A stretch of 64,000 nucleotides of DNA from Alphaproteobacteria bacterium. Its GTDB lineage: Bacteria; Pseudomonadota; Alphaproteobacteria; UBA2966. Positions 1 through 23,689 of this stretch are shown here, piece after piece (the stretch's first letter is position 1; each line of letters opens with the position of its first letter). The stretch covers positions 24,603-88,602 of the forward strand of contig JASLXG010000066.1 in NCBI GenBank assembly GCA_030740435.1, given 5' to 3'. The notes beneath the pieces were generated by a model that saw nothing but the letters and a program-made list of their open reading frames with translations, was not told where the DNA came from and did not search any database. The translations under genes were made by a program, and so were the position numbers.

Positions 1-230
1 TGCACAACGGCAACTTCTTCGAACTCAGCGAAGTGGTCGAGTTCTACAACGAAGGCGGTGACCAGAACGAGTTCTCGGCCAACAAGACCAAGTTGCTCAA
101 GCCCCTCAACCTCTCGGACGAGGAGCAGGAGGACCTGGTGGCCTTCCTGGATTCCCTGAGCGGCGACGAAATCAAGATCACGTCGCCCAAGCTGCCGCCC
201 TATGCGCCGCTGCCGGCGTCGACGAATTGA
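1..230 (+). CDS. di-haem cytochrome c peroxidase / MauG-family protein, C-terminal end (5' part outside window)
   Basis: Frame open from the window edge (codons from nt 3) reads HNGNFFELSEVVEFYNEGGDQN...LSDEEQEDLVAFLDSLSG. This is the conserved C-terminal block of bacterial CCP/MauG proteins. Stop TGA at 228-230. Confidence 0.7.
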   Translation, partial: HNGNFFELSEVVEFYNEGGDQNEFSANKTKLLKPLNLSDEEQEDLVAFLDSLSGDEIKITSPKLPPYAPLPASTN

Positions 231-244
231 GCGGGGATGCAATC

Positions 245-835
245 ATGAAAATCGAAACGCAAACTGTGATTTCCGCCCACCAGGCCCACGACATGGTGGC
301 TTCTGGGGCGGTCCACGAAGGCCACGGCAAGTGCCTGATGAGCCGGCGCCAGTTCCTGCTGACCTCGGGTGCCACCAGCGTCGTGATGGTCAGTGCCGGT
401 CCCGGCCTGGCTGCCGCGCCGGCCGTGGTGTCGGGTTATAAGCGCCAGAAGATCGCCAAGCTGAGCCAGCTCAAGACCGACCAGCCGGTCGATTTCAAAT
501 ACCCTGACCAGGGAGCCTTCTCGGAATCGATGGTGGTCAAGTTGGGCACGGAAGCCGGCGGCGGCGTCGGTCCGGGCCGCGACGTGGTGGCCTTCAACTA
601 TGCCTGCACCCATCAGGGCGGGACTTTGAGCGGCACCTACAAGGGCGACACCAAGTCGCTGGGCGCCTGCCCGCTGCACCTTTCGACCTATGACCTGACG
701 CGCCACGGCATTTTGATCTCGGGCCAGGCCTACCAGAGCCTGCCCCAGGTGCTGCTGGAGTTGAAGGGCGACGATGTTTTTGCCGTGGGCGTCTTCGGGC
801 TGATCTTCGGCCGCTACGACAATCTGTTGGGTTAG
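245..835 (+). CDS. TAT-exported Rieske [2Fe-2S] small subunit, arsenite-oxidase/iodate-reductase (AioB/IdrB)-like
   Basis: Twin-arginine signal (MSRRQFLLTSGATSVV...AAAPA). Rieske boxes C-T-H (nt 605-613) and C-P-L-H 18 residues later. Sits directly upstream of the AioA-like large subunit, as in aioBA. Start ATG 245 (GGGGA 7 nt upstream) preferred; ATG 338 is an alternative. Confidence 0.8.
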   Translation: MKIETQTVISAHQAHDMVASGAVHEGHGKCLMSRRQFLLTSGATSVVMVSAGPGLAAAPAVVSGYKRQKIAKLSQLKTDQPVDFKYPDQGAFSESMVVKLGTEAGGGVGPGRDVVAFNYACTHQGGTLSGTYKGDTKSLGACPLHLSTYDLTRHGILISGQAYQSLPQVLLELKGDDVFAVGVFGLIFGRYDNLLG

Positions 836-848
836 GGAGCCAGGAACG

Positions 849-3521
849 ATGACAACACCCTATTACATTCCGGAAACCAACGTTCCGCTGCCGCCCAAGG
901 ACGCGGACGTCATCACCACCGCCTGCGACTACTGCATCGTGGCCTGCGGCTTCAAGGTCTACCGCTGGCCGGTGGCCGGCAACAACAAGGGTGGCCCCAA
1001 GGCCGGCCAGAACGCTTTCGGCGTCGACTTCCCGGTCTCCGCGCTGGGCGAGTGGGTGGCTCCCAACCAGCACAACATCGTGCTGCACAAGAACCAGCCC
1101 CACCACATCGTGATCATCCCCGACAAGGCCACCAAGCACGTCAACACGGATGGTGATTCGAGCCTGCGTGGCGGCTGCATCGCGCAAAAGGTCTACAATC
1201 CCCAGACGCCGACGCGCGACCGTCTGAAATCACCCTTTATGCGCATCTACGGCATCTTGCAGCCGGTGACCTGGGATTTCGCCCTCGACGTGGCGGCCGA
1301 GGTGGGGCGCCATGTCATCGCCAAGCACGGCGACAACGCCTATGGCGTCAAGACGTATTCCTACCAGTACATCGAGAACACCTACGCCATCACCAAGTTC
1401 GCGCTCCGCCACATCCGCACGGCCAACTTCACCTTCCATGATACGCCCTCGGACGTGTCGTCGACACCGGGCTTTCGCGACGCCGGCTTCGACAACTTCG
1501 GGCCGGCCTACGAAGACTGGATGAACGCCGAAACATTGTTCATGTGCGGCACCGATCCCTACGAGACCAAGACCATCCTCTTCACCCAGTGGATCATGAA
1601 GGGCATCCAGAACGGTCAGAAGGCCATCTTCATGCTGCCCCGCCGCACCGCCGGCGTTGCCTATGGCGAGAAGAACGGCGGCCTCTGGCTCGACGTAACC
1701 CCGGGCACCGACCTCCTGGTCATCAACGCCATCGCCCGCACCATCGTCGAGAACGGCTGGGAGGATTCGGAGTGGATCAAGAAGTGGGTCAACAACAAAT
1801 GGGAATCCTCCTCGGGCTTCGGCCAGGGCACGCGCAACACGCCCTGGCAGTGGCGCACCACCTGGGGCAAGTTCCAGACCAAGGGTTTCGCCGACTGGAA
1901 GAAGTGGCTCTTGAGCCGCGATGAGTTCAAGGTCGAAAACGCTTCCGCCGTCTCGGGCGTCGCCGCCAAGAAGATCCTGACCGCCGCCGAGTGGCTGGCC
2001 AAGCCCAAGAACGGCAAGCGGCCCAAGTCCTCGATCATGATCGAGAAGGGCCTTTACTGGTCCAACAACACCGGCAGCACCGAGGCCATCTCGGCGCTCG
2101 GCATTATCGTCGGGGCCGGCGGCCGGCCGGGCCAGGTCATCGGCCGGGCCGGCGGCCATCAGCGTGGCGGCCAGCGTGGCGGCAAATATCCGCGCAACAA
2201 GTCGCCCATGAAGGTGCCGGGCCGGCGCCGTCGGGCCCTGGATACCGATACCTGGACCATGGCCGGCCATACACACATGGCCCACGTCATCGGCACCACC
2301 TGGATCCAGTCCATGTGCGGCTCGCAGCAACTGGCCAAGCGCTTCCACGAACTGACGCTGGCCAACCCGCATCAGGTGCGTTCCTACGACAAGAGGGACA
2401 TCATCGAGAGTCTCAAGAAACGGGCCGATTCGGGCGGCATGGTGGTGATCAACCAGGAAATCTATCTGGTCGATCCCATCGGCAACCGTTATGCCGACAT
2501 CATCTTCCCGGCCGCCACCTGGGGCGAGGACAACTTCATGCGGGCCAACGGCGAACGCCGGCTCAGGCTCTACCAGAAGTTCTACGACGCCCCCGGCGAG
2601 GCCAAACCCGACTGGTGGATCATCGCCAACCTGGCCAAGCGCATGGGCTACGACGGCTTCGATTGGAAGAACTCCAACGACGTCGCCGAAGAGGCCTCGC
2701 GCTTCTCTCGCGGCAGCCGCAAGGACTTTCACATGGTCAAGGTGGCAGCCAAGCGCGAGGGCAAGACGCTGCACCGGAAGATGGCCGAATTCGGCACCAA
2801 CGGCATCCAGGGCCCGGTGTTCATGAACGACGACGGCTCGCTGATGGGCTGGAAGCGCTTGCATGACACCACCGCCAAACTGCCCGGTACGGGTCCGGCC
2901 GGGGCCAACGTCTTCAACAAGAAGTTGACCCACTTCAACAGCCAGACCGGCAAGTGCAACCTGCAGAAATCGCGCTGGTCGCTGTTTTCCGACTACTGGA
3001 ACTGGCTGAAGCCCAAGGGCGAGGAAATGTGGTGCACCTCGGGCCGCACCAACGAACGCTGGCAGTCGGGTTTCGACGACCGGCGCCGGCCCTACATCGT
3101 GCAGCGCTGGCCCGAGAACTATGTCGAGATGAGCCCCGAGGATGCCAAGGCCCGCGGCATCGAATCGGGAGATATGGTGATGGTCTACTCCGACCGGGTG
3201 CCCAGCCTGAAGGAAACCGTGCTCGGTGTCGAAGGCTCGGATTATTCCTTCGCCGGCCAGATGGCCAAGGGCAACGTCGAATTGACCCGGGCGGCGGTGA
3301 CCGGTGTGGCCATGGTGACGCGCCACATCAAGAAGGGCGTCCTCTATATGGACTTCCTGCACCCGGCCCAGCCGGCCAACGCGCTGGAGGGCCGCATCGT
3401 CGATTGGATCAGCGGCAATTATAATTACAAAATGGGCGTCGCCAAGGTGAAGAAGATCGGCGAATCCCCCTACAAGCGTTCCTTCCGCTCGATGTCGTTC
3501 GCGCCGCGCGATATCGTGTGA
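849..3521 (+). CDS. molybdopterin oxidoreductase large subunit, AioA/IdrA-like (3Fe-4S type); substrate unknown
   Basis: 890 aa. N-terminal C26-x2-C29-x3-C33 (TACDYCIVACGFKVYRWP) matches the 3Fe-4S arrangement of arsenite-oxidase-type subunits. Also GRAGGHQRGG block and an AioA-like C-terminal tail (...KKIGESPYKRSFRSMSF). No signal peptide of its own, consistent with hitch-hiking on the TAT Rieske partner. RBS GGGAG 835-839. Confidence 0.8.
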   Translation: MTTPYYIPETNVPLPPKDADVITTACDYCIVACGFKVYRWPVAGNNKGGPKAGQNAFGVDFPVSALGEWVAPNQHNIVLHKNQPHHIVIIPDKATKHVNTDGDSSLRGGCIAQKVYNPQTPTRDRLKSPFMRIYGILQPVTWDFALDVAAEVGRHVIAKHGDNAYGVKTYSYQYIENTYAITKFALRHIRTANFTFHDTPSDVSSTPGFRDAGFDNFGPAYEDWMNAETLFMCGTDPYETKTILFTQWIMKGIQNGQKAIFMLPRRTAGVAYGEKNGGLWLDVTPGTDLLVINAIARTIVENGWEDSEWIKKWVNNKWESSSGFGQGTRNTPWQWRTTWGKFQTKGFADWKKWLLSRDEFKVENASAVSGVAAKKILTAAEWLAKPKNGKRPKSSIMIEKGLYWSNNTGSTEAISALGIIVGAGGRPGQVIGRAGGHQRGGQRGGKYPRNKSPMKVPGRRRRALDTDTWTMAGHTHMAHVIGTTWIQSMCGSQQLAKRFHELTLANPHQVRSYDKRDIIESLKKRADSGGMVVINQEIYLVDPIGNRYADIIFPAATWGEDNFMRANGERRLRLYQKFYDAPGEAKPDWWIIANLAKRMGYDGFDWKNSNDVAEEASRFSRGSRKDFHMVKVAAKREGKTLHRKMAEFGTNGIQGPVFMNDDGSLMGWKRLHDTTAKLPGTGPAGANVFNKKLTHFNSQTGKCNLQKSRWSLFSDYWNWLKPKGEEMWCTSGRTNERWQSGFDDRRRPYIVQRWPENYVEMSPEDAKARGIESGDMVMVYSDRVPSLKETVLGVEGSDYSFAGQMAKGNVELTRAAVTGVAMVTRHIKKGVLYMDFLHPAQPANALEGRIVDWISGNYNYKMGVAKVKKIGESPYKRSFRSMSFAPRDIV

Positions 3522-5835: not shown

Positions 5836-6618
5836 ATGACAATGAAAGCGCAGACGAAATTAGGCTCTTTGGCGATTGCCGTGGCGGTCGCGGTGGCCTT
5901 GGCGGCACCCGCCCAGGCGGCTAAGAAGTACAAGGAAATCGACGTCCAGAACGGCGCCACCATCAGCGGGCGTGTGAGCTTCGAAGGCGCGCTCCCGGCC
6001 GACGCGGTGGAGAAGATCCTGATCACCAAGGATCCCAAGATCTGCGGCGAGGGTGAACGCGAAGTGGTCTGGATCGACGTCAAGGACGGCGCGCTGCGCG
6101 GCAGCTTCGTCTTCATCAACAAAATAAAAGAGGGCAAGAAGTGGGGCGCCCCGACCGGCGGCAAGTACATCATCGACCAGAAGGGTTGCCGCTTCAATCC
6201 CTGGGCCCAGGTGGTGCAGCCCGGCCCCATCACCATCCGCCACTCGGACCCGGGGGCGCTGCATAACATCAACACGCGCGAGATCATCGGCGTGGGCAAG
6301 AAGAAGTCGGTCAAGCGCACCATGTTCAACTTCGGCCAGCCCGAGCCCGGCGATATCGAACAGGCGCTGAAGCCCAGGCGCTCAGCCTTCATCGGCATCA
6401 ACTGCGAGGCCCACAACTTCATGTTCGGCTACATGATGGCACCCAAACACCCCTATGCCGTGGTGGTCGCGGACGACGGCTCGTTCAGCCTTGGCGACGT
6501 GCCGCCAGGCAAGTATTCGGTGCGTGCCTGGCATCCCCGGCTCGGCCTCAAGAAGACCAAGATCACGGTGGCGGCCGGAGCCAAGGCGGAAGCCAATTTC
6601 GCTTTCAAGGCCAAGTAG
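5836..6618 (+). CDS. periplasmic cupredoxin-like protein (putative type-1 Cu site) with carboxypeptidase-regulatory-like beta-sandwich ends
   Basis: Sec signal (AVAVALAAPAQA). C190-E-A-H193-N-F-M196 (nt 6403-6423) is an amicyanin-style C-x2-H-x2-M loop, with upstream His candidates at 6241-6243 and 6262-6264. The N-terminal GATISGRVSFEG and C-terminal DGSFSLGDVPPGKYSVRAW resemble CarboxypepD_reg strands. RBS GAGGAGAGG precedes ATG 5836. Confidence 0.55.
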   Translation: MTMKAQTKLGSLAIAVAVAVALAAPAQAAKKYKEIDVQNGATISGRVSFEGALPADAVEKILITKDPKICGEGEREVVWIDVKDGALRGSFVFINKIKEGKKWGAPTGGKYIIDQKGCRFNPWAQVVQPGPITIRHSDPGALHNINTREIIGVGKKKSVKRTMFNFGQPEPGDIEQALKPRRSAFIGINCEAHNFMFGYMMAPKHPYAVVVADDGSFSLGDVPPGKYSVRAWHPRLGLKKTKITVAAGAKAEANFAFKAK

Positions 6619-8768: not shown

Positions 8769-9746
8769 ATGACCGCCACCATGGCCAGGGTTGCGCTGTT
8801 CATGTTTCTGCTGCTGGGCCTTTTCCTGTGGGTCGGCAGCACCATCACGGCCATGACCGGCGGCGACAAGCGGCCCAAGGGCGGCGCCGTCGAGGTCAGC
8901 CCCGAGGGCGGCGAGGCCATCTTCTGGGGCAAGGGGCGCTGCTTCACCTGCCACAGCCTGGGCGGCCAAGGGAGCGCCGTGCGCTGCCCCAACCTGGGCC
9001 AATTCGGCGACAAGTTCGCGCTGCCCATCGGCGCCCGAGCGGCGGAGCGGGCCAAGGAACGCAGCGCCAAGACCGGCCAGACCTACACGACCACCGATTA
9101 CCTGGTGGAAAGCCTGGCCGAGCCTGGGGCCTACGTCGTCGAGGGCTACAAGAACGAGATGGCCATCGTCTACGCGCCGCCGATCTCGCTCAATCTTACC
9201 GAGATCAAGGCCGTGATCGCCTACTTGCAGAGCCAGGGCGGCGACGTCGACATGGAGGCGCTGAACAAGCCAAGCCCGATCAGCCAGAAGTTCTTCGCCC
9301 GCATCAATGCGGCCTCGGCCGCCGGTGGTGGCGATCCCGGTGCCGGCGAGGTGGTCTTCGAGGACAACTGCGCCGAATGCCATGACCTCGGTGGTGAAGA
9401 CGAGGAGCTGCCGGGTCCGGCGCTTTCGGGCGTCGGCAAGAAGGGCCTCAAGTTCCTGGCCGATGCCATCCTCAGGCCGGCCAAGGAGATCACCAAGGGT
9501 TTCGAGACGTATCAAGCGGTGATGAAGGACGGCCGCAAGCACGTTGGCCTGAAAAGCCGTGACGAGGGCGGCGAGGTCGACATCACCAAGGCCAACGGCG
9601 ACGTCGAGACGCTGGCCAAGGCCGAGATCAAGGAGCTCAAGGAAGACAAGGGCAAATCGATCATGCCCGAAGACCTGATCGAGGCCCTGACGGTCAAGGA
9701 CTATCAGGACGTCCTCTCGTTCCTGCTGTTGCAAAAGGGCGAGTAA
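8769..9746 (+). CDS. membrane-anchored di-haem cytochrome c, module 1
   Basis: N-terminal TM helix. CFTCH and CAECH motifs. The C-terminal half resembles the Planctomycete/Verrucomicrobia-type haem-binding domain (...SIMPEDLIEALTVKDYQDVLSFL). Confidence 0.8.
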   Translation: MTATMARVALFMFLLLGLFLWVGSTITAMTGGDKRPKGGAVEVSPEGGEAIFWGKGRCFTCHSLGGQGSAVRCPNLGQFGDKFALPIGARAAERAKERSAKTGQTYTTTDYLVESLAEPGAYVVEGYKNEMAIVYAPPISLNLTEIKAVIAYLQSQGGDVDMEALNKPSPISQKFFARINAASAAGGGDPGAGEVVFEDNCAECHDLGGEDEELPGPALSGVGKKGLKFLADAILRPAKEITKGFETYQAVMKDGRKHVGLKSRDEGGEVDITKANGDVETLAKAEIKELKEDKGKSIMPEDLIEALTVKDYQDVLSFLLLQKGE

Positions 9747-13443: not shown

Positions 13444-13452
13444 TAAGGCGCC

Positions 13453-13846: not shown

Positions 13847-13897
13847 AGTCAAGGCAGCCTGCAGGGGGGCACAAATGAATAATCCGAGGGATTGCTC

Positions 13898-14014: not shown

Positions 14015-14023
14015 GGGGGACTG

Positions 14024-15880
14024 GTGACGCACAGCAAGGTTTTGACCGCCTGGCGCCCCTGGGTGCTGGCGGCTCTGGTGGCGACGCTGTTGCTGGCCCT
14101 GGTGCCGCTGCTGGGCAGCGCCCTGGATATCGCGTCGCCGGCCCTGGCGGCCGAAGGCGAGGCGGCGGCGGCGGCAAGCGGCGAGCAGGCGGCGGCCCCG
14201 GCCGGCCCGACCATCGCGCCGCCCAAACTGAAGAGCACCGACTATCCGGTTGTGGCCGGCGTCAACGGACGCATCTTCGTCTGGCTGGCGGCGCAATTGC
14301 ACCTCTGGTTCGCGGCCTTCGTGCTGGCCGTGCCGATCTTCGTCTTCATCATCGAAGCCATCGGCATGTACAGCCGCGACCAACGCTACGACAACATGGC
14401 CTACGAGTTCATCAAGGTCAGCATCACCGCCTATTCCCTGACCGCCATCCTGGGTGGCCTGTTGGCCATCGGCCTGATCGTTTTCTACCCGCACCTCTTC
14501 CAGTACATGTCCGGCGTCTTCAAGGAATCGATGGTCTGGTATGCGGTGCTGTTCTTCGCCGAAAGCGCCTGCCTTTACATCTATTACTACGGCTGGCACT
14601 GGCTGCAGGGCGGCTTCCGCAAGTGGGTTCATCTGACGCTGGGGCTGGTGCTGAATGGCGTCGGCACGACGCTGATGTTCCTGGCCAACGCCTGGCTCAC
14701 CTTCCAGATGAGCCCGGCCGGCGTCGATGCCGCCGGCCTCTATTCCGGCGACGTCTGGGCCGCCATCCACAATCCCTTGTGGAACCCCATCAACCTGCAC
14801 CGCATGATCGCCAACGTCGCCTACGGCGGCTCGGTGGTCGGCGCCTATGCCGCCTTCCGGTTTCTCTCGTCGCGCACGGCCGAGCTCAGGGCGCATTACG
14901 ACTGGATGGGCTACACCGCCAACTTCATCGCCATCAGCGCGCTCTTGCCGCTGCCCTTCGCCGGCTACTACCTGACGGCCGAGATCTACGCCTACAGCCA
15001 GCAGATGGGCATCACCCTGATGGGCGGCGTCTTCGCCTGGCTCTTCATCATCCAGGCGGTGCTGATCGGCACGCTGTTCCTCTCGGCCAACTATTATCTC
15101 TGGTGCGGCATGGGGCGCAGCGACGGGGCGCCGCGTTACAACCCCTATATCAAGTACATAGCCTTCGGTCTGGTGGCCTCGTTCCTGGTCTGGTTCACGC
15201 CCCACACCCTGGTGCTGACGAACGAGGAACTGAAGGCTCTGGGCGGGCCCTACCACAAGTACCTGGGGCCGCTGGGCATCATGCCGGCCAAGAACACGGC
15301 CGTGAACTACATGATCATCCTGACGGCGCTGAGTTTCCTGATTTACCGCCGCGCCAACAAGATCCCGACGGTAAGCTGGGTCAAGATCGGCAATGCCGTG
15401 CAGGTGGCCATGTTCACGGCCGCCGTCGTCAACATCCTTATCCTGGGCGTCTACCACGGCTACTTCACCAACACCGTCTACAAGGTGGCGAGCTCGATCC
15501 CCCAGGTGTTGACGACGCTGGTGGTGATCTTCGTCAGTACGCTCATCGACGTCTTCATGTACCGCGGCGCCAAGGACGTGGCGCCGCTGCATTGGGGCCG
15601 ATTGCCCGAACGCGCCCAGTACGCGCTCTTCCTGCTGGCCGTCTCGTTCACCTGGCTGATGGGCCTGATGGGCTACATCCGCTCGGGCATCCGCCAGCAC
15701 TGGCACGTGGTCGGCATCTTCCGCGACAACTCGGCCGACGCCTTCACGCCGACCCTGGCGGGCGGTGCCAATATCGTCTCTGTGGGGGTCATCATCTTCC
15801 TGGTGATGGTCATCTTCGTCTTCTGGGTCAGCCAGATCAGCGGCCGCAAGACCGAAGTGGCCGGATACTGGAGGACCTAG
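14024..15880 (+). CDS. CydA-like (cytochrome bd subunit I-like) polytopic membrane protein, module 2; no cydB partner
   Basis: 618 aa, about 14 hydrophobic segments. AAQLHLWFAAFVLAVPIF, AVLFFAESACLYIYYYGW, NLHRMIANVAYGG and MGLMGYIRSGIRQHWH are all shared with the module-1 paralogue. GTG start with GGGGGA 14015-14020. Confidence 0.65.
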   Translation: MTHSKVLTAWRPWVLAALVATLLLALVPLLGSALDIASPALAAEGEAAAAASGEQAAAPAGPTIAPPKLKSTDYPVVAGVNGRIFVWLAAQLHLWFAAFVLAVPIFVFIIEAIGMYSRDQRYDNMAYEFIKVSITAYSLTAILGGLLAIGLIVFYPHLFQYMSGVFKESMVWYAVLFFAESACLYIYYYGWHWLQGGFRKWVHLTLGLVLNGVGTTLMFLANAWLTFQMSPAGVDAAGLYSGDVWAAIHNPLWNPINLHRMIANVAYGGSVVGAYAAFRFLSSRTAELRAHYDWMGYTANFIAISALLPLPFAGYYLTAEIYAYSQQMGITLMGGVFAWLFIIQAVLIGTLFLSANYYLWCGMGRSDGAPRYNPYIKYIAFGLVASFLVWFTPHTLVLTNEELKALGGPYHKYLGPLGIMPAKNTAVNYMIILTALSFLIYRRANKIPTVSWVKIGNAVQVAMFTAAVVNILILGVYHGYFTNTVYKVASSIPQVLTTLVVIFVSTLIDVFMYRGAKDVAPLHWGRLPERAQYALFLLAVSFTWLMGLMGYIRSGIRQHWHVVGIFRDNSADAFTPTLAGGANIVSVGVIIFLVMVIFVFWVSQISGRKTEVAGYWRT

Positions 15881-15883
15881 GCG

Positions 15884-16702
15884 ATGATGAACTTCCTCAA
15901 GGTGGCCCTCTTCTCGCTGGTCGTCATCGGCTTTTTCGCGGGCTATTCCAACTGGGGCATCCCGCAGATCGAGCCGGCGGCGCCGCCGGTGGAAGAAGTG
16001 CTCGATCTGGGCGCCATGACCATGGACGACTTCATCGCGCTGGGCGGCAAGATCTACAACGGCAAGGGCACCTGCACGCTCTGCCACAATGCCGTCGGCG
16101 GCCGGGCGCCCATGCTCGATACCGCCGCCGGCCTGGTTGCCGAACGCCTCAAGGACGCCCGCTACAAGGGCGAGGCCAGCGACGCCGAGGGCTATCTGCT
16201 GGAATCGCTGGTCAATCCCTCGGCCTTCGTGGTGGCGGGCTTCGGCAAGAAGGGGACAGCCGATGCCGAAAGCCCGATGCCCGACGTCTCGGGCGGCTCG
16301 GTGGGCTTGAGCGAGGTCGAACTGGCGGCCGTGGTGGCCTTCCTGCAGGATCTCGGCGGCACCGATGTGACGGTGGAGATCCCCTCGGGCGCCCAGGCCT
16401 CCGACGAAAGCGGCGACGAGGAGGGCGAGCCCCGGGCGGCCTACGCCTCGATCGAGGAACTGATCGCCGAGCAGTCCTGCGGCGCCTGCCACAAGGTGGC
16501 CGGCGAGGAAGGCGACGTTGGTCCGGACCTCAACGGCATCGGCGCCAAGTACGATCGCGACTACCTGCGCCGTTCCATCCTCGATCCCAATGCCGACATC
16601 GGCCAGGGCTTCGAGGCCGACACCATGCCGGCGGAATACGGCACCACCCTCTATGCCCAGGAACTCGAAATGCTGATCGACTACCTGGCCAAACTGAAAT
16701 GA
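15884..16702 (+). CDS. membrane-anchored di-haem cytochrome c, module 2
   Basis: N-terminal TM helix. CTLCH and CGACH motifs. YLLESLVNPSAFVVAGF and DYLRRSILDPNADIGQGF blocks are paralogous to the 8769-9746 protein. Confidence 0.8.
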   Translation: MMNFLKVALFSLVVIGFFAGYSNWGIPQIEPAAPPVEEVLDLGAMTMDDFIALGGKIYNGKGTCTLCHNAVGGRAPMLDTAAGLVAERLKDARYKGEASDAEGYLLESLVNPSAFVVAGFGKKGTADAESPMPDVSGGSVGLSEVELAAVVAFLQDLGGTDVTVEIPSGAQASDESGDEEGEPRAAYASIEELIAEQSCGACHKVAGEEGDVGPDLNGIGAKYDRDYLRRSILDPNADIGQGFEADTMPAEYGTTLYAQELEMLIDYLAKLK

Positions 16703-16715: not shown

Positions 16716-17483
16716 ATGAAAATTCCCAGGCTCCTGCTGTCGGTCATCACCGTCCTGGTCTTCTACGCCGCCTTCGAGGTGGTCTTCGGGCTGATCCTCG
16801 GGCAGCCCATCCCGGCCAGCCTGATGACCATGTACATGTTCTTCGTGGTTGCCGGCGTCTTCATGACGTTTACCTTCACCGAGGAAGGCGGCCGCGAGAT
16901 GGTGGCGCCGATCAAGGCGCTGGTCGAGGATCCCTCCAAACGCATGGTGCGCAACGTCGTCTTCGTCATCGTGCCGCTGCTGGCCGGTGGCCTGACGTAT
17001 TGGCAGATGCAGCCCTCCTTCGAGGCGCCGCTGGAGCTGCGTTCGATCCATCCGGCACCGCCCTCGAGCGCCAAGATCTACGGCAAGCGCTACGATCTGC
17101 TGACGCTGGAGAACCCGTTGCGCAAGTTCGAGAAGGAGGATCCCGAGAAGTTCCGCGAATTGGTGGCGGCGGGCGCCACGGTCTACATCGAGAACTGCCA
17201 GTACTGCCACGGCGACAAGCTCGATGGCCAGGGGCCCTACGCCCAGGGCCTCAATCCGGTGCCGCTCAACTTCCAGGACATCGGCACCATCGCCCAGCTT
17301 CAGGAATCCTACCTCTTTTGGCGCATTGCCACGGGCGGGCCGGGCCTGCCCAGCGAAGCCTCGCCCTGGCTCTCGTCGATGCCGGTGTGGCAGAGCTTCC
17401 TCAAGGAAGAAGAAATCTGGCAGGTCATCCTTTTCCTTTACGACTACACCGGCCACCGGCCGCGCTCATGGGAGCATGAATGA
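16716..17483 (+). CDS. 3-TM membrane-anchored mono-haem cytochrome c, module 2
   Basis: Three hydrophobic helices. CQYCH followed by FWRIATGGPGLPSEASPWLSSMP. Paralogue of 9753-10718. Overlaps the next gene by 4 nt. Confidence 0.8.
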   Translation: MKIPRLLLSVITVLVFYAAFEVVFGLILGQPIPASLMTMYMFFVVAGVFMTFTFTEEGGREMVAPIKALVEDPSKRMVRNVVFVIVPLLAGGLTYWQMQPSFEAPLELRSIHPAPPSSAKIYGKRYDLLTLENPLRKFEKEDPEKFRELVAAGATVYIENCQYCHGDKLDGQGPYAQGLNPVPLNFQDIGTIAQLQESYLFWRIATGGPGLPSEASPWLSSMPVWQSFLKEEEIWQVILFLYDYTGHRPRSWEHE

Positions 17484-19024
17484 TGGCTGCGGTGACGATG
17501 GATAAAGTGCTGCGGGCGCTGGGCGCCGGTATCGTGCTGGCCGCTCTTTCGGCGGGTGCCGCCCTGGCCGTGCCGGGCAATGCCGAGAAGGGCGAAAAGG
17601 TCTACCAGTTCCGCTGCCTGGCCTGCCACGGCGACGAAGGCGACGGCCTGGGCCCGGCTGCCGAGCGCCTCAACCCGCCGCCTCGGGACTTTACGCTGGG
17701 GATTTATAAGATCAAGACCAGCGCCTTTGACGAAGACGCGCCCAACGACGACGACATCTTCCGCATGATCAAGGACGGCATGCCCGGAACCGCCATGCCG
17801 GGCTGGTCGGACGTGCTCAGCGAGCAGGACATGTGGGACCTGGTGGCCTATCTCAAGGTCTTCGCCGAGATCGAGGAGGCGCCGGAGGGCCAGATCGACT
17901 ACGGCAAGCAGATCGAAAGCTCGGCCGACAGCATCGCCCGTGGGCGTGAAATTTTCCTCGATGGCGAGCGCTGCTCCGAATGCCACGGCCGTGAAGGCCG
18001 CGGTGACGGCATCAAGAAGCTCAAGGACGACAACGGCGCCCGCACCTGGCCCAGGAACCTCACCAAGGCCTGGACCTATCGCGCCGACAACAGCGCCAAG
18101 GAGATCTTCCGCCGCGTCACGGTGGGTATTCCCGGCACCCAGATGCCGGCCTTCGCCGATCCCAAGTCGAAAAAGAAACTGAGCATCGAGGAACGCTGGC
18201 ACGTGGCCAACTATGTGGCCTCGCTGGCCAAGACGGTGGAGGTCGTCAATCCCTCCAAGACGGTGATCGTGGCGGCCAAGCTCGAGGGCGCGCTGCCGGC
18301 CAAGGTCGACGACCCGAAATGGGCCGAGGCGGCGCCCGTGACCTTCATGCTGGTGCCCCAGATCATCGCCGAGGACAGGTTCTTCACGCCGGCCCACGAC
18401 AGCATCACCGCCCGCGCCTTCTATAACGACGAAGCGATCGCCATGCTGCTGGAATGGGACGACCGCACCAAGTCCTTGCCCGGGGACGACAAGGCGGCCC
18501 AGATCGCGGACGAGGAGCTGAGCTCCGACATGGTGGCCGTGCAACTGCCGGTGACGATTCCCATAAGCCAGGAGAAGCCCTATTTCCTGATGGGCGACAA
18601 ATCCCATCCCGTGAACTTCTGGCGCTGGTCCAGCGGCGGCAAGGAGGCGTCCCAGGGCGTCGAGTTGATGAACGCCACCGGGCCCTACGAGTTCGCCGAA
18701 CGCGACGCCGCCAAGACTGGTCTCACGGCCAGCGGCAGCTACAAGGACGGCACCTGGCGGGTAGTCATGACCCGGCCCTTGCGCACCGATGATGCCGAGG
18801 GCGACCTGCAGTTCGAGGAGGGCCGCTTCATCCCCGTGGCCTTCGCCAACTGGGACGGCTCCAACAGCGAAAGCGAAACCAGCCACACCCTGACGACCTG
18901 GTACTGGCTGCTGCTCGAGCCGCCGACGGGGACGCGGCCCCTGATCACGGCCCTGATCGTAGTGCTGCTGCTGGCGGCGGCCGAGATCTGGTGGGCGCGT
19001 AGCGCCCGTGGGTCCGATGCATGA
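17480..19024 (+). CDS. di-haem cytochrome c fused to EB_dh-like domain with C-terminal TM anchor, module 2
   Basis: CLACH and CSECH motifs. PRDFTLG and GTAMPGW/GTQMPAF blocks. Then ITARAFYNDEAIAMLLEWDD...FIPVAFANWDGSNSESE. C-terminal helix LITALIVVLLLAAAEIWW. Paralogue of 10718-12337. Confidence 0.65.
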   Translation: MMAAVTMDKVLRALGAGIVLAALSAGAALAVPGNAEKGEKVYQFRCLACHGDEGDGLGPAAERLNPPPRDFTLGIYKIKTSAFDEDAPNDDDIFRMIKDGMPGTAMPGWSDVLSEQDMWDLVAYLKVFAEIEEAPEGQIDYGKQIESSADSIARGREIFLDGERCSECHGREGRGDGIKKLKDDNGARTWPRNLTKAWTYRADNSAKEIFRRVTVGIPGTQMPAFADPKSKKKLSIEERWHVANYVASLAKTVEVVNPSKTVIVAAKLEGALPAKVDDPKWAEAAPVTFMLVPQIIAEDRFFTPAHDSITARAFYNDEAIAMLLEWDDRTKSLPGDDKAAQIADEELSSDMVAVQLPVTIPISQEKPYFLMGDKSHPVNFWRWSSGGKEASQGVELMNATGPYEFAERDAAKTGLTASGSYKDGTWRVVMTRPLRTDDAEGDLQFEEGRFIPVAFANWDGSNSESETSHTLTTWYWLLLEPPTGTRPLITALIVVLLLAAAEIWWARSARGSDA

Positions 19025-19260
19025 CGCCGAACCCGGCGGCTGACGACGAGGAGTTACGGGACGAGGAACCGGTCCGCGGCGTCAAGACGCGTATGATCGG
19101 CGCCGGCTTGATCTTTCTCGGCGTTCTCGACAGTCTGCTCAGTTGGCGGGGCGGTTTCGAGCCCAGCCTGTTTCATTGGTTTCTGATTGCCGCCGGCATA
19201 CTGGTTTTTGCCATCGGCGCGATCCGGCAGAGGCGGGACGCCGGGTCTCCGTCACCCTAG
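19021..19260 (+). CDS. small 2-TM membrane protein, translationally coupled to the preceding gene
   Basis: ATGA start/stop overlap at 19021-19024. Two hydrophobic helices (MIGAGLIFLGVLDSLL; FHWFLIAAGILVFAIGAI). Confidence 0.5.
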   Translation: MTPNPAADDEELRDEEPVRGVKTRMIGAGLIFLGVLDSLLSWRGGFEPSLFHWFLIAAGILVFAIGAIRQRRDAGSPSP

Positions 19261-19270
19261 GAGAGTGTCC

Positions 19271-20944
19271 ATGACTGCACCCGCGTCCAGCCAGCCAGCG
19301 CTGCAGGACGGTGCCCAGGCGTCGCCGCCCGACACGGCGCCGGTTTCCTTCAAGCGCTTCATCGTCGCCCTCGATGCTTCCGACCATGCCAACCGGGCGC
19401 TGGCCGAAGCGCTACGCCTCTCGGCCACGGCCGAGGGTGAGATCACCGGCATCCACGCCTATGCCGCGGCGCTGCATGACCGGCGCTTTCGCCAGATGGA
19501 AGGCGGCCTGCCCGAGCGCTACCTCGACGAAGAGGAAATGTCCTACCAGCGCGACGTCCACGACGACCTGATTACGCGCGGTCTCGACATCATCTCCGAC
19601 AGCTACCACGACCAGGCCGAGGCCGCCTGCGAGACGGCCGGGCTGCCTTATGCCCGCCTCAGCCCCGAAGGCAAGAACGCGAGCCGCATCGTCGAAGCCC
19701 TCGAGGCCGGGGGCCACGACGTGCTGGCCATGGGTGCGCTGGGCCTGGGAGCGGTGCCGGGCAGCCTGATCGGCACCGTCTGCGAGCGCGTGGTGCGGCG
19801 CTCGCCGATCGATGTGCTCGTCGTTCGCGATGTCGAACGGGCCATCGGCGAGGGGCCGGTGGTGGTCGGCCTGGATGGCTCGCCACAGTCCTTCGGGGCG
19901 CTGCTCACGGGCTTCGAGATGGCCCGCCGGCTCGGCGTCGAGCTGCATGCCGTGGCGGCCTACGACCCCTACTACCACTACGTCGCCTTCAACCGCATCG
20001 CCGGCGTGCTCAGCGACGAAGCCGGCAAGGTCTTTCGCTTCAAGGAACAAGAACAGCTGCACGAGGAACTGATCGACGAGGGCATCGCCAAGATCTATCA
20101 GTCCCACCTCGAGGTGGCGTCGCGCACGGCCAAGGATGCCGGCGTCGAGCTCGTCACCAAGCTCCTGGACGGCAAGCCCTTCAAGGCCATCGAGGCCTAT
20201 GTCCGTGAGGTCGGCGCCAGCCTGCTGATGCTGGGCAAGACCGGCATCCACGGCGACGCCATGATCGATATCGGCGGCAACACCGAAAACCTCTTGCGTC
20301 TCGCGCCCTGCCACGTCTGGATCGGCCAGGCCAGCCACGTGCCGGCGCTGGATATCGTCGCCGCCGAAAGCATCAGCTGGAGCCATGAGGCCGAGGCGCT
20401 GCTCAACCGCGCCCCCGAATTCGCCCGTGGCATGGCCCGCCAGGCGGTGATCCGCTTTGCCCATGCCCGGGGCAACACCTACATCACGTCGGATCTGGTC
20501 GAGCAGGTGGCGGCCAAGATGATGCCCGGCCGGGGCCAGGCGGAGGCGGCCGCGGCCAGCCCGGAAACGGTCTGGAGCGCCGCCGCCGAAGCCGAGCTGG
20601 CCAAGCTCGATGATGCCAACCAGGCCGCCGGTGTTCGCCTGCGGGCGGAAAAGCGGGCTCGCCGCGAGGGCGCGGCCGAGGTTGGCGCCGAGCACGTGCG
20701 GGCCTTTGTCGAGGCGCCGGCCGCGGCCACGCTGCCTTGGGCCGCGGCGGCGCTGGCCCGGCTGACCAGGGTGCCCGAGGCCATGCGCGATCGCACCCGG
20801 GCGCGCATCGAAGAGGTGGCGCGCGAGCAGGGCGCCACCGAGGTCACGCTGGCGATCTGCGAGCTGGGCCTCGAAGAGGCCCGCAAGGCCATGCACGAGG
20901 CCATGGTCAAAGGCGGTCACACCAAGACGGTCGAAGACGATTGA
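19271..20944 (+). CDS. tandem universal-stress-protein (UspA) domains followed by two PCP_red-like domains
   Basis: Two USP-like halves (FKRFIVALDASDHANRAL...VCERVVRRSPIDVLVV; VVVGLDGSPQSFGAL...NTENLLRLAPCHVWI). Two repeats of the W-x2-EA-x3-L-x3-P-x-(F/A)-x-R motif (ISWSHEAEALLNRAPEFARGMAR; LPWAAAALARLTRVPEAMRDRTR). RBS AGGAGAG before ATG 19271. Confidence 0.65.
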   Translation: MTAPASSQPALQDGAQASPPDTAPVSFKRFIVALDASDHANRALAEALRLSATAEGEITGIHAYAAALHDRRFRQMEGGLPERYLDEEEMSYQRDVHDDLITRGLDIISDSYHDQAEAACETAGLPYARLSPEGKNASRIVEALEAGGHDVLAMGALGLGAVPGSLIGTVCERVVRRSPIDVLVVRDVERAIGEGPVVVGLDGSPQSFGALLTGFEMARRLGVELHAVAAYDPYYHYVAFNRIAGVLSDEAGKVFRFKEQEQLHEELIDEGIAKIYQSHLEVASRTAKDAGVELVTKLLDGKPFKAIEAYVREVGASLLMLGKTGIHGDAMIDIGGNTENLLRLAPCHVWIGQASHVPALDIVAAESISWSHEAEALLNRAPEFARGMARQAVIRFAHARGNTYITSDLVEQVAAKMMPGRGQAEAAAASPETVWSAAAEAELAKLDDANQAAGVRLRAEKRARREGAAEVGAEHVRAFVEAPAAATLPWAAAALARLTRVPEAMRDRTRARIEEVAREQGATEVTLAICELGLEEARKAMHEAMVKGGHTKTVEDD

Positions 20945-20957: not shown

Positions 20958-22250
20958 ATGAACGCCCAGGCCCATATCGCCGAACCTCCCTTCCTGGTTG
21001 CCCTCAACCTGACGCGGCGGTGCAACCTGGCCTGCGCGCACTGCTACCTCGATGCCGGTACCCGGAGTGACGGGACGGCCGGCGAGATGGGCACGGCCGA
21101 GGTAACGGCGCTGCTCGTCGACATCGCGGCGCTGGACGACGAGACCATGGTGGTACTGACCGGCGGCGAGCCGCTGCTGCGCCGCGATATCGAGGATATC
21201 GCCCGCCATGGCGCCGATCTCGGCCTGATGGTGGTGCTGGGCTCCAATGGCACGCTGCTCGATGGTCCTCGCGTGGCATCGTTGGCGGCGGCCGGCGTGC
21301 GCGGCGTTGGCATCAGCCTCGATTCCCTCGACCCGGCCTACCACGACGGCTTCCGCGGCCGGCCCGGAGCCTGGGAGCAGGCCATGAACGGCATCGACGC
21401 CTGCCGCCGGAGCGGGCTCGGATTCCAGATCCACTTCTCGGCCACCGAGGAGAACGCGGCCGAGCTCGACGACATGATCGCCTTCGCCAAAAGTTCCGGG
21501 GCGCTGGTGCTGAACGTTTTTTTTCTCGTCTGCACCGGTCGCGGCGAGCGTTTCTCGGGCATCTCGGTGAAAACCTACGACCGGGTGCTGGAACGCCTGA
21601 CGGAGGCCGCCCACGACGATACGGGACCCCTGGTGCGGGCCAAGTGCGCGCCCCATTTCCGCCGCCTGGCGATCGAGCTCGATCCGGCCTGGGCGATCAC
21701 GCCGATGCACGGCTACGAGGCCGGTGGCTGTTTGGCCGGCAGCCGTTATTGCCGAGTCACCCCCGAGGGCGAGGTGACGCCGTGCCCCTACATCGAAGAG
21801 CCGGCGGGATCGCTCAGCCAGACAAGTTTCGCCGAGATTTGGCAGGGTGCCGAGCTCTTCGCCCGGCTGCGCCAGCCTGAGCTCGGCGGGCGTTGCGGCG
21901 TTTGCGAATACCGCCGTGTCTGTGGCGGCTGCCGGGCCCGGCCGGCGGCCCGCGACGGCGACCTGATGGGCGAGGATTTCCTTTGCGGCTACCAGCCCCG
22001 GGGCGGTGCCGTGATCGAGCCCCTGGTGCTGGCCGAGAGCGCTCTCGACTGGTCGCGCGAGGCGGAGCAGCGCTTGCGGCGCGTGCCCGCCTTCCTGCGC
22101 CGCATGGTGCGCCGCCGGGCCGAGGTTTTCGTGCGCGGCGAAGGCCGACAGCAAGTCGAGGCCGATGACCTCCAGACCCTGGCGCGGCGGCGCTTTGGCG
22201 AGGCCGGCCCGCCGCGGCCCGAATTTGACGGAGAGCGCCGTGAGCTTTGA
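20958..22250 (+). CDS. radical-SAM/SPASM enzyme (AhbD/NirJ-like) with C-terminal PCP_red-like domain
   Basis: CNLACAHC (C-x3-C-x2-C) near the N-terminus. Cys-rich SPASM-like region (CLAGSRYC...C...CGVCEYRRVCGGCRAR). C-terminal LDWSREAEQRLRRVPAFLRRMVRRR. Confidence 0.7.
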   Translation: MNAQAHIAEPPFLVALNLTRRCNLACAHCYLDAGTRSDGTAGEMGTAEVTALLVDIAALDDETMVVLTGGEPLLRRDIEDIARHGADLGLMVVLGSNGTLLDGPRVASLAAAGVRGVGISLDSLDPAYHDGFRGRPGAWEQAMNGIDACRRSGLGFQIHFSATEENAAELDDMIAFAKSSGALVLNVFFLVCTGRGERFSGISVKTYDRVLERLTEAAHDDTGPLVRAKCAPHFRRLAIELDPAWAITPMHGYEAGGCLAGSRYCRVTPEGEVTPCPYIEEPAGSLSQTSFAEIWQGAELFARLRQPELGGRCGVCEYRRVCGGCRARPAARDGDLMGEDFLCGYQPRGGAVIEPLVLAESALDWSREAEQRLRRVPAFLRRMVRRRAEVFVRGEGRQQVEADDLQTLARRRFGEAGPPRPEFDGERREL

Positions 22251-23637
22251 CGCAGCCATCATCGGCGGCGGCATCTCGGGCCTGGCCACGGCCGAGGAAC
22301 TGCGCCGGCGGGGCCGCTCGGTGGTGCTGTTGGAGCGCCAGGTGGCGGCTGGCGGCAAGGCCTTTTCGGAACGCCTGGGCGGCTTTCTCATGGAGCACGG
22401 ACCCAGCACCGTCGGTGCTCACGTCGCGGCGGCCACCGACTGGTCGCAGCGCCTGGAGTTGGAGACCGAGCGCTGCGAGCTGGGCCCCGCCGTGCGCCGG
22501 CGCTATCTGGTGGCCGGGGGGCGTCTCGAAGGTATGGCCAGCCATCCCTTCAGCCTGCTCAGCTCGGGTTATCTCTCGCTGCCGGCCAGGCTTCGGCTGC
22601 TGGCCGAGGTGGTGCTGCCCCGCGGCCGGGAGGGCGACGACGAATCGGTGGCCCAGTTCGCCCGCCGCCGCTTCGGCCGCGAGGTCGCCGAGCGCCTGGT
22701 CGATCCCCTGGTCGGTGGTATCTACGCCGGGCGGGCCGACGAGATTTCGCTGCGTGCCGCCTTTCCGGCGCTGCATGAGCTGGAGCGCCAGTACCGTTCC
22801 GTGGTGCTGGGCGTGGCGGCGCGGCGCTGGCGCGGCGGCCGCATGCCGGGCGGCCGGCTGTTTTCCTGGCGCCACGGCGTGGCCAGCCTGCCCCGGGCGC
22901 TGCAGCGGAACCTGGGCCAAGCCTTGCGTACCGGCATCGCCGTGCAGGGCCTGGAACGCGGGCGCCGGGGCTTTAGGCTGCTGACGCCAGAGGGTGAGCT
23001 TGAAGCCCGGGCCGTGGTCATTGCCACCCAGCCCCACATGACGGCGGCCCTGATCGAGAAGCTGGACCCGACCGCGGCCGAGGCCGCCGCCGGCGTGGCG
23101 GCGCCGTCGCTGGCCGTGGTTTATCTCGGCTACCGGCGCCAGCAGGTCGAACACGCGCTCGACGGGCTGGGCTTCCTGGCGGCGGCCGACGAAGGCCGGG
23201 CCCTCAACGGCGCCCAATTTTGCTCGACCATGTTCAGCCACCGGGCGCCGGCCGGCCACGTCGCCCTGGCCGCCTATTTCGGCGGTGCCCGCAATCCTGA
23301 TCTGGGCTTGCTGCCGGCCGACGATCTGGTGGCCTTGGCGCGGCGCGAGTTTGGCGATCTGGTCGGCGCCCGCGGCGAGCCGGTGCTGGCGCGGGTGCGC
23401 CACTGGCCGCGCGGTTTGCCGCAATACGCTGCCGGTCACGTCGAGCGGGTGCGGGATTTGGCGGCGCTGCCGCAGCGCCTGCCCGGCCTTTTCCTCACCG
23501 GCAACTATTTTCGCGGACCCTCCGTGGCGGCCTGTCTGGAACTTGCCGATGAGACCGCGGCCCGGCTCGACGGCTTCCTCGCCGGGCTAGGCGAGAGCAG
23601 CGACCGGGCCCCTATCAAGGCTGCCGCAAGCCGCTGA
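22240..23637 (+). CDS. FAD-dependent protoporphyrinogen/coproporphyrinogen oxidase (HemY/CgoX-type)
   Basis: GTG 22240, overlapping the upstream gene by 11 nt. Dinucleotide fold FDAAIIGGGISGLATAEEL. HemY-like blocks VDPLVGGIYAGRADEISL and LFLTGNYFRGPSVAACL. Confidence 0.7.
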   Translation: MSFDAAIIGGGISGLATAEELRRRGRSVVLLERQVAAGGKAFSERLGGFLMEHGPSTVGAHVAAATDWSQRLELETERCELGPAVRRRYLVAGGRLEGMASHPFSLLSSGYLSLPARLRLLAEVVLPRGREGDDESVAQFARRRFGREVAERLVDPLVGGIYAGRADEISLRAAFPALHELERQYRSVVLGVAARRWRGGRMPGGRLFSWRHGVASLPRALQRNLGQALRTGIAVQGLERGRRGFRLLTPEGELEARAVVIATQPHMTAALIEKLDPTAAEAAAGVAAPSLAVVYLGYRRQQVEHALDGLGFLAAADEGRALNGAQFCSTMFSHRAPAGHVALAAYFGGARNPDLGLLPADDLVALARREFGDLVGARGEPVLARVRHWPRGLPQYAAGHVERVRDLAALPQRLPGLFLTGNYFRGPSVAACLELADETAARLDGFLAGLGESSDRAPIKAAASR

Positions 23638-23663
23638 TCGGCGTCTTCGAAGGCCGGAAAGTG

Positions 23664-23689
23664 ACGCCCTTTTTGGGCGTTATTTTTTT
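23664..23689 (+). terminator. rho-independent terminator ending the island
   Basis: ACGCCC (23664-23669), loop TTTTT, GGGCGT (23675-23680), then TATTTTTTT. Confidence 0.7.

Follow-up and report, generated by a model that had tools for sequence, protein, structure and literature searches.

When a molybdoenzyme is encoded next to two sets of cytochrome bd-like membrane genes, do they form one respiratory chain, or does each have a role of its own? The question is raised by positions 1–23,689 of a 64-kb stretch of DNA (64,000 nucleotides of contig JASLXG010000066.1; hereafter, the window) from an uncultured alphaproteobacterium. A preliminary description, made from the sequence alone, had read these positions as an island that places an Aio/Idr-type catalytic unit in the electron-wiring context of nitrite oxidoreductase (NXR) and provides it with a dedicated quinone-linked route. 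We found that the region is two autonomous respiratory units joined, of which one is predicted to encode a marine iodate reductase (idr) and the other, present as a tandem duplication, matches the OR-N2 subfamily of bd-like oxidases. Genes and domains were identified with Pfam and NCBIfam scans of the window proteins, and feature coordinates are collected in Table 1.

Sequence and neighbors alike assign the molybdoenzyme to the ocean clade of iodate reductases rather than to the arsenite oxidases. The published discriminator between the IdrA and AioA clades is the presence of peroxidase genes alongside. The window opens inside idrP1, with the remainder of that gene preceding its start, and the exact IdrA protein of the window is present on at least 23 metagenomic contigs whose shared genes are 99–100% identical to those of the window. 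Identical contigs (L001–L006; L and P numbers are our labels for the loci compared) contained two complete CCP_MauG genes of 372 and 379 amino acids ahead of the Rieske gene, in the order HAMP histidine kinase, sigma-54 response regulator, idrP2, idrP1, idrB, idrA; the idrB gene call in L001 was 196 amino acids. The idrP2-P1-B-A order is that of the clusters of confirmed iodate reducers, and idrABP1P2 of Pseudomonas sp. SCT and of Denitromonas sp. IR-12 has the same four genes and subunit types. Homologues with 69–87% identity to the window IdrA, from 80 species-level genomes, all stood behind two cytochrome c peroxidase genes and a Rieske gene. The window IdrA was 70% identical to that of Photobacterium proteolyticum and 76% to that of Roseibium (Labrenzia) album, and the 80-locus set also contained Ruegeria and Pseudovibrio species, all of which are species or genera listed in the published IdrA clade. 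Clade placement was made from identity and bit scores in place of a formal tree, with ~270 bits for the window IdrA against AioA structures and 1,660–1,875 bits against clade members.

AioAB and the window enzyme share a fold family and cofactors, and the best solved structures are AioA/AroA, but the similarity is far lower than to the IdrA clade. We take the AioA active-site tetrad to be His195, Glu203, Arg419, and His423 (A. faecalis numbering). Across 237 homologues the positions of His195, Arg419, and His423 were invariant, while that of Glu203 was Ser in 202, the window protein included. The NCBIfam arsenite-oxidase models were passed narrowly (TIGR02693, 400.9 against a cut-off of 359; TIGR02694, 115 against a cut-off of 96). 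Arsenite oxidase was rejected on the peroxidase neighbors, the Glu-to-Ser change, and IdrA clade membership, and the Idr side of the earlier Aio/Idr assignment is upheld by the same neighbors and clade identity.

Published work gives this clade its setting. In a June 2026 paper, idrA carried by metagenome-assembled genomes (MAGs) of oxygen minimum zones (OMZs; 44% of the MAGs Alphaproteobacteria and 46% SAR324) formed a new clade, and idrABP1P2 from one alphaproteobacterial and one SAR324 OMZ MAG reduced iodate to iodide in E. coli (Li et al. 2026). Loci L012, L023, and L082 of our set carry isolate names of the form Arabian*_MAG_*, the naming scheme of that paper. In marine aerobes idr is induced and active under O2 limitation only. 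The idrA gene is confined to OMZs, with abundance and transcripts peaking in the anoxic core, where iodide accumulates, and sulfur-oxidation genes co-occur in the MAGs of OMZ iodate reducers. The published clusters and that of the window have a marine, low-oxygen setting in common, and the host is probably an OMZ alphaproteobacterium. A sigma-54-type box, TGGTACGGTTTTTGCG, was found at L001 6965–6981, ~130 bp 5′ of idrP2 and just outside the window. Together with the upstream HAMP histidine kinase and sigma-54 response regulator, it suggests dedicated two-component control of idr.

The bd-like genes were characterized through their subunit I homologues, CydA1 and CydA2, which are paralogous (41–46% identical). 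The preliminary description had listed two CydA-like proteins without cydB. Both indeed matched the bd subunit I family PF01654, with the match limited to the N-terminal helices, and cydB was absent from the window and from related loci. Alignment to solved CydA (9r2g_A, 5doq_A) kept the equivalents of His19, Glu107, and His186 and ended short of the Q-loop region. Canonical CydAB(X) thus has in common with the window proteins the N-terminal helices carrying these residues, as well as single-transmembrane peptides reminiscent of CydX. The window proteins differ in the lack of cydB, no detectable Q-loop, added C-terminal helices, and c-type and EbdC-like subunits.

In a 51-sequence alignment, the CydA2 invariants H93, Y173, E180, Y187, Y189, H203, H259, M420/N424, S554, and W560 reproduced the pattern and spacing of the OR-N2 reference residues H99, Y183, E190, Y197, Y199, H213, H269, M430/N434, S563, and W569 (Murali, Gennis & Hemp 2021, Supplementary Table 6). 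CydA1 kept the same signature residues in pairwise alignment with CydA2, including the Glu at the position where the OR-N1 reference has Gly. OR-N2 (the Nitrospira NIDE0901-type ‘bd-like oxidase’) and the window share a CydA homologue, in the window probably of the 14-transmembrane-helix class, with no detectable Q-loop, equivalents of His19, Glu107, His126, and His186, Tyr for Glu99, Met/Asn at Met393, and Ser at Glu445. OR-N2 is defined as being without a quinol-binding Q-loop and has an operon type described as ‘multiple cytochromes c and an ebdC homologue’. Each module of the window consists of a CydA homologue, an anchored di-haem cytochrome c, a mono-haem cytochrome c with three transmembrane helices, and a di-haem c/EbdC-like haem b subunit, so both modules match this composition of several c cytochromes plus an EbdC homologue. 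Judged on these residues and on gene composition, CydA1 and CydA2 both match the OR-N2 subfamily. AlphaFold modeling of CydA2 from 51 homologues gave 14–15 helices at a predicted local distance difference test score (pLDDT) of 58, and Foldseek with this low-confidence model ranked bd oxidase subunit I first at TM scores of 0.2–0.3. The count of ~14 transmembrane helices comes from this model and a crude hydropathy scan, and the model was given no weight, either way, on the question of a quinone site.

The window departs from known OR-N2 systems in its proteobacterial host, in an Aio/Idr-type partner in place of NXR, and in extra components, namely small peptides, a cupredoxin-like protein, the tetrapyrrole genes (USP, radical-SAM, HemY), and SCO1 in some loci. 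The whole four-gene module is also tandem-duplicated, in contrast with the proposed OR-N1/OR-N2 CydAA′ heterodimer. We rejected such a heterodimer here as each CydA-like gene has its own cytochrome set and both keep the OR-N2 Glu; the full subunit set of each CydA points instead to two parallel complexes. In the module 2 subunit EBb, the di-haem domain (residues 35–251, 17582–18232) matched Kuenenia stuttgartiensis 6h5l_B (E 7e-40), which we take to be the di-haem redox partner of a hydroxylamine oxidoreductase-like enzyme. The EbdC-like domain of EBb matched Kuenenia NXR-C (7b04_C) weakly and kept the EbdC Met108 ligand position.

The NXR analogy drawn earlier was apt in that the CydA-like proteins fall in OR-N, a family also found alongside NXR in both Nitrospira and Nitrospina. 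NXR loci (Nitrospira, Nitrospina, anammox) and the window both have a periplasmic molybdoenzyme beside a bd-like protein, EbdC/NxrC-type haem b, c cytochromes, and cupredoxin-type proteins. They differ in the catalytic subunit, which is of the Aio/Idr type with 3Fe-4S and Rieske clusters in the window and a type II dimethyl sulfoxide reductase with an NxrB ferredoxin subunit in NXR, and all experiments on the Idr clade have been in the reductive direction.

We surveyed the linkage of the two units from both sides, a check that the preliminary description had named, and found it kept across many genomes. Of 43 loci from species-level genomes in which idrA had 7 kb or more of sequence on each side, 23 carried a CydA-like gene within 10 kb of idrA. 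Of 36 metagenomic loci in which 7 kb or more preceded a CydA1-type gene, idr lay upstream in 30. The linkage thus recurs in independent loci, far beyond chance, although the CydA-like family is small (164 cluster representatives reached E ≤ 1e-30 out of 1.84 billion). It spans Alpha-, Beta-, and Gammaproteobacteria and SAR324 in at least four gene orders. The first, idr–HEAT–cupredoxin-like–module 1–c2x–c1x–module 2, is that of the window and many alphaproteobacterial MAGs, and recurs without the cupredoxin-like gene in a betaproteobacterial MAG (L087). In the second (Sneathiellales and others), a CydA2-type module precedes idr–HEAT–cupredoxin-like–USP–radical-SAM–HemY, with module and idr on the same strand ~200 bp apart. 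The third, in Gammaproteobacteria, has a CydA2-type module immediately 5′ of idr, and the fourth, in SAR324, is idr–two cupredoxin-like genes–module 1–module 2. A second IdrA class (897 amino acids, 54–57% identical to the window IdrA, known only from MAGs of many phyla) was found at L100 4614–7307 and at ~20 other metagenome loci, including L089, L090, L093, L097, L099, L107, and L112–L114. It is also tied to CydA1 genes, equally conserved, and there the cupredoxin-like gene heads the operon.

Each unit was also found alone, and this makes them autonomous. CydA2 modules with c2x, c1x, small peptides, and tetrapyrrole genes occurred without idr, either beside sox genes or among unrelated neighbors, and L095 had the full double module and no idr. 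Conversely, idr with the HEAT gene only was found in Ruegeria, Stappiaceae, Pseudovibrio, Photobacterium, a Rhodovibrionaceae genome, and a Nitrospinota MAG. Separate existence is what would be expected if idr and OR-N2 were distinct low-oxygen adaptations, co-transferred and co-regulated in OMZ lineages with no direct coupling. The published description of idr as a horizontally transferred island, the strong hairpin between idr and module 2 in the window, and the shuffling of gene order between lineages agree with that explanation. We nevertheless consider it decidedly unlikely, given that adjacency has outlasted at least four rearrangements in four phylum- or class-level lineages and holds for both IdrA classes despite their mutual identity of 54–57%, that the second arrangement packs module and idr so closely on one strand, and that in loci of the second class the cupredoxin-like gene relocates to become the first of the idr operon.

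The published model of iodate reduction has electrons arriving from the cytochrome bc1 complex via soluble cytochrome c, and describes the genes flanking idr as showing ‘poor conservation’. Unlike the published clusters, the idr genes of the window are followed by a HEAT-repeat gene, a cupredoxin-like gene, two bd-like multi-haem modules, and haem genes. The Pfam domains bore out the bc1 operon at 34682–37266 that the preliminary description had placed, and this operon is likely the source of reduced cytochrome c. To the reading that the locus is a low-oxygen respiratory hub, in which cytochrome c feeds both iodate reduction and high-affinity O2 reduction by OR-N2 with a dedicated haem supply, we give an even chance. 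A periplasmic pool of cytochrome c and cupredoxin would be kept reduced by bc1, encoded 11 kb away, and probably also by sulfur oxidation. In one branch, the pool would donate to periplasmic IdrAB for the reduction of iodate to iodide, with IdrP1 and IdrP2 clearing peroxide-type by-products. In the other, electrons would leave the pool by way of the multi-haem subunits for the OR-N2 complexes, where O2 would be reduced to water at high affinity. The OR-N2 branch would allow the use of trace O2 while shielding the O2-sensitive Idr, and may also take up O2 or oxidants arising from iodate reduction. The tetrapyrrole genes would supply or tailor the haems of both modules, ~18 if each CydA-like subunit binds three. 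This reading fits the induction of idr under O2 limitation, the confinement of idrA to OMZs, and the sulfur-oxidation genes in the MAGs. It also accords with the treatment of OR-N as the cytochrome c-oxidizing terminal oxidase of Nitrospinota and Nitrospirales, where some cultured Nitrospira have no other oxidase.

Several points weigh against the hub. The six periplasmic haems per module exceed the needs of a simple cytochrome c oxidase, and the near-constant position of CydA1 beside idr suggests a more specific partnership than that of parallel branches. The strong hairpin at 13453–13477 stands between idr and both module 2 and the haem genes, and co-transcription is a presumption. The OR-N family is known from genomics only, with O2 reduction assumed by the field, and the absence of a quinol site is read from sequence alone, the CydA2 model being poor.

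The partnership of CydA1 with idr in 30 of 36 loci, and with either of the divergent IdrA classes, would suit the dedicated quinol route of the preliminary description, in which one or both bd-like modules, most plausibly those of the CydA1 type, oxidize quinol and pass electrons through haem b and c, the cupredoxin-like protein, and soluble cytochromes to IdrAB, bypassing bc1. The long haem wire of five c and one b per module resembles those of enzymes like alternative complex III, a quinol:cytochrome c oxidoreductase, and other islands for periplasmic oxyanion reductases, such as those of perchlorate reduction, carry their own quinol dehydrogenases. A quinol donor is considered for OR-N1 and OR-N5 as well, by way of petABD-type (bc1/b6f-like) operon partners and not of the CydA-like protein itself. 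Other evidence runs against it: both modules carry the signature of OR-N2, which is defined without a Q-loop, and the alignments to solved CydA end before reaching the Q-loop; bc1 genes lie nearby; the same modules are found without idr and idr without the modules; and in E. coli iodate is reduced with no more than idrABP1P2. We therefore regard the dedicated quinol route as unlikely.

The chain could also be imagined in reverse, with the Idr-like enzyme oxidizing iodide or HOI/iodite and electrons flowing through cupredoxin and c cytochromes to OR-N2 and O2. OR-N oxidases accompany oxidizers of high-potential donors, namely nitrite in Nitrospira and Nitrospina and Mn(II) in Ca. Manganitrophus. 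Aio, the nearest characterized relative, is an oxidase donating to azurin or cytochrome c, and no biological route that turns iodide into iodate in the sea is known so far. Against this stand the experiments on the clade, all of which show iodate reduction, including those with the OMZ alphaproteobacterial and SAR324 clusters, and the maximum of idrA abundance and transcripts in the anoxic OMZ core, where iodide builds up. The energy yield would by our own estimate be very small, and the peroxidases suit a reductive pathway. Reverse operation is accordingly very improbable, and we would put only the slightest weight on the idea that the Idr-type enzyme and its associated bd-like module are one chain able to run oxidatively, from iodide or HOI/iodite to iodate with electrons to OR-N2 and O2. 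If true, an oxidative Idr/OR-N2 chain would mirror the pairing of NXR with OR-N and would fill in the biological step, so far missing, that regenerates iodate in the sea.

The preliminary description had held the combination to be undescribed, and our full-text literature searches found no paper describing the pairing of idr with bd-like genes. The HEAT, cupredoxin-like, bd-like, and haem genes were likewise unmentioned as idr neighbors in the idr literature searched, including its two main genomics papers, one of which reported poorly conserved flanking genes. The components are known; what appears new is the conserved joining of idr and OR-N2, the tandem duplication of a whole OR-N2 module, and the accessory set. 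Iodate reduction in OMZs controls marine iodide and thereby iodine emission and ozone loss, and iodate-reducing organisms were linked to idrABP1P2 only in 2021–2026. OR-N bd-like oxidases, for their part, are the presumed terminal oxidases of nitrite oxidizers. The linkage suggests in concrete terms how the iodate reducers of OMZs may respire trace O2 and iodate together. It also supplies a proteobacterial OR-N2 complex that is potentially expressible, with its probable accessory genes for small subunits, copper delivery, and tetrapyrrole enzymes. Public labels on the homologues, ‘arsenate reductase (azurin) large subunit’ or ‘arsenite oxidase’ for the one and ‘cytochrome ubiquinol oxidase subunit I’ for the other, are probably wrong for the IdrA and CydA-like clades and misleading on hundreds of metagenomic genes. 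The azurin arsenate-reductase labels are probably misnomers because of the peroxidase neighbors, the Ser at the Glu203 position, and the low similarity to AioA.

Among the additional partners of idrA, the HEAT-repeat protein is conserved most widely. Its gene followed idrA in 37 of the 43 well-flanked loci and was also found in Nitrospinota and isolate-type genomes (for example L170 6250–8265, L174 12916–15282, and L175 12777–15122), and it looks like an unrecognized fifth gene of the idr cluster. The window protein contains an acidic (EP)n linker, and PDB searches with it returned generic repeat matches only. Downstream of it, the cupredoxin-like call of the preliminary description held at the level of the ligand motif. 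H143, C190, H193, and M196 were invariant in a 13-sequence alignment, forming a His...C-x2-H-x2-M set with ligand spacing resembling that of amicyanin and plastocyanin, and of 80 distinct homologues, 60 were inspected, every one with a C-[ED]-A-H-[ND]-F-M motif. Against amicyanin and plastocyanin, hhalign gave E values of 0.07 and 0.02, respectively, in local matches covering the ligand loops only. A 13-sequence profile searched against PDB matched only the C-terminal CarboxypepD_reg beta-sandwich, and a single-sequence AlphaFold (AF2) model was unusable (pLDDT 35). Cupredoxin identity is thus suggested at the motif level only. A 34%-identical paralogue of the protein is encoded at L001 2513–3250 (minus strand), upstream of the idr regulators in the contig family of the window.

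SCO1/SenC copper-chaperone genes were observed in or right after bd-like modules at L087 14988–15605 and L171 9176–9886. Taken with the cupredoxin-like protein and the invariant CydA2 histidines (His394, His411, His559, His561), they hint at a copper requirement.

Tetrapyrrole genes close the region. The USP/PCP_red gene accompanied the CydA2 module whether idr was present or not, and PDB searches with its product gave generic USP matches only. The radical-SAM/PCP_red enzyme scored below both equivalog cut-offs of 500 bits (TIGR04545, 293; TIGR04055, 289) and probably modifies tetrapyrrole side chains. In one idr-less locus beside sox genes, HemJ took the place of HemY and a ferrochelatase was added. 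As a set, they resemble genes for late steps of haem synthesis, or for haem tailoring, that serve the modules specifically, for which 10 haems c and 2 haems b are shown, or ~18 in total if each CydA-like subunit binds three.

The small membrane peptides lie in the two larger gaps of the region. sA was matched 5′ of CydA2-type genes in L007, L008, L038, L044, L048, L087, and L088, and sB, called as a 38-amino acid gene in L088 and L171–L173, is a candidate small subunit of the CydA2 complex. Genes of 58–85 amino acids stood at the position of the 79-amino acid protein in L088, L171, L172, L173, and the P0226 locus. All three, sA, sB, and the 79-amino acid protein, may serve the bd-like complex as small subunits resembling CydX. 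sC lies on the minus strand of the window, of L007 (20407–20508), and of L173, and on the plus strand in L087 (9644–9724) and L088 (3886–3978), and a small segment around it seems to have been inverted in some lineages. The soluble cytochrome c2x was always positioned between both modules or before a lone CydA2 module.

The layout agrees closely with the preliminary description, whose gene positions and domains were recovered with four small membrane peptides in addition. The region holds 18 large and 3 small co-directional open reading frames (ORFs) and 1 small minus-strand ORF, with exactly 13 CXXCH motifs across 8 proteins, the number given before. The tiny gaps and start/stop overlaps reported earlier were present, including the one-base overlap of c1a and EBa. 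Intergenic spacing was at most 110 bp throughout, except for 580 bp at 13443–14024 and 246 bp at 19024–19271, where small conserved membrane ORFs occupied the space (three in the former, one in the latter). Of two intrinsic terminators claimed before, the hairpin at 13453–13477 was convincing and probably terminates the idr-to-c1x transcription unit, whereas the one around 23654–23676 was weak in the terminator scan. Overall, terminator-like motifs were at chance level (15 observed, 13.3 expected). A sigma-54 promoter scan of the window found none in the two internal gaps and a chance-level total.

The ‘island’ of the preliminary description was not borne out in the sense of a mobile element. 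We rejected a mobile genomic island because the window had no integrase, no tRNA (tRNA and Rfam scans gave no match), and no compositional break. The G+C content of positions 1–23,689, at 0.61–0.72, was equal to that of the rest of the window.

Table 1 Features of the window, with coordinates, strand, and supporting evidence
Feature	Position	Strand	Evidence
idrP1, C-terminal 75 residues, second of two di-haem cytochrome c peroxidases	3-227	+	NCBIfam MauG/MbnH C-terminal matches
idrB, Rieske 2Fe-2S small subunit, twin-arginine signal SRRQFL	245/338-835	+	PF00355, TAT_signal, TIGR02694 115 bits
idrA, 890-aa molybdopterin large subunit, 3Fe-4S cluster	849-3521	+	PF18465 (Rieske_3), PF00384, PF01568
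HEAT-repeat protein, cytoplasmic, ~730 aa	3608-5803	+	HEAT_2 E 2e-54
Cupredoxin-like periplasmic protein, 260 aa, C-terminal CarboxypepD_reg beta-sandwich	5836-6618	+	Signal peptide, conserved ligand motif
CydA1, OR-N2-like bd subunit I homologue, ~704 aa	6650-8764	+	PF01654 E 2e-10
c2a, membrane-anchored di-haem cytochrome c, module 1	8769-9746	+	Two CXXCH, PF00034, N-terminal transmembrane helix
c1a, mono-haem cytochrome c with three transmembrane helices, module 1	9753-10718	+	One CXXCH, PF13442
EBa, di-haem c, EbdC-like haem b domain, C-terminal anchor, module 1	10718-12337	+	PF00034 x2, PF09459 85 bits
c2x, soluble periplasmic di-haem cytochrome c	12392-13054	+	Two CXXCH, signal peptide
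c1x, soluble mono-haem class I cytochrome c, 122 aa	13075-13443	+	PF13442 E 4e-12; position conserved
Terminator-like hairpin	13453-13477	+	Best of scan: 10 pairs, 9 G-C, T-rich tail
sC, 33-aa single-transmembrane hydrophobic peptide	13532-13633	-	tblastn conservation; called gene in L173
sA, 40-aa single-transmembrane peptide (WAGPxLF...FFWW)	13724-13846	+	tblastn conservation
sB, 38-aa single-transmembrane peptide (..IMxaQGL..)	13898-14014	+	Directly 5′ of CydA2 in nine loci
CydA2, OR-N2-type bd subunit I homologue, 618 aa	14024-15880	+	PF01654 E 2e-14
c2b, membrane-anchored di-haem cytochrome c, module 2	15884-16702	+	Two CXXCH, PF00034
c1b, mono-haem cytochrome c with three transmembrane helices, module 2	16716-17483	+	One CXXCH, PF13442
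EBb, di-haem c, EbdC-like haem b domain, C-terminal anchor, module 2	17480-19024	+	PF09459 81 bits, TIGR03477 102 bits
79-aa small membrane protein, overlaps EBb stop codon	19021-19260	+	ORF scan
Tandem-USP protein with two PCP_red (tetrapyrrole-binding type) domains	19271-20944	+	PF00582 x2, PF08369 x2
AhbD/NirJ-family radical-SAM/SPASM enzyme, C-terminal PCP_red	20958-22250	+	PF04055, PF13186, PF08369
HemY-type protoporphyrinogen/coproporphyrinogen oxidase	22240-23637 (start 22165 or 22240)	+	TIGR00562 220 bits (cut-off 98); PF01593
Cytochrome bc1 operon (Rieske, cytochrome b, cytochrome c1)	34682-37266	-	PF10399/PF00355, PF00033/PF00032, PF02167

A few further observations concern other loci and the rest of the window. 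At L169 10001–14592, a truncated idrA-like gene (816 amino acids) and a HEAT partner, with no peroxidase or Rieske gene, lay among transposases and toxin-antitoxin genes in what looks like the remnant of a decaying idr cluster. A perfect sigma-54 consensus (TGGCAC-N5-TTGCW) at 37694–37709 of the window lies 17 bp 5′ of the ORF at 37726–38250, which had no Pfam match, and adjoins the bc1 operon, which runs divergently. Positions 41041–45796, downstream of the respiratory genes, encode a MoxR-type AAA ATPase, a DUF58 protein, and BatA/DUF4159 in a Bat-like ‘aerotolerance’ operon.

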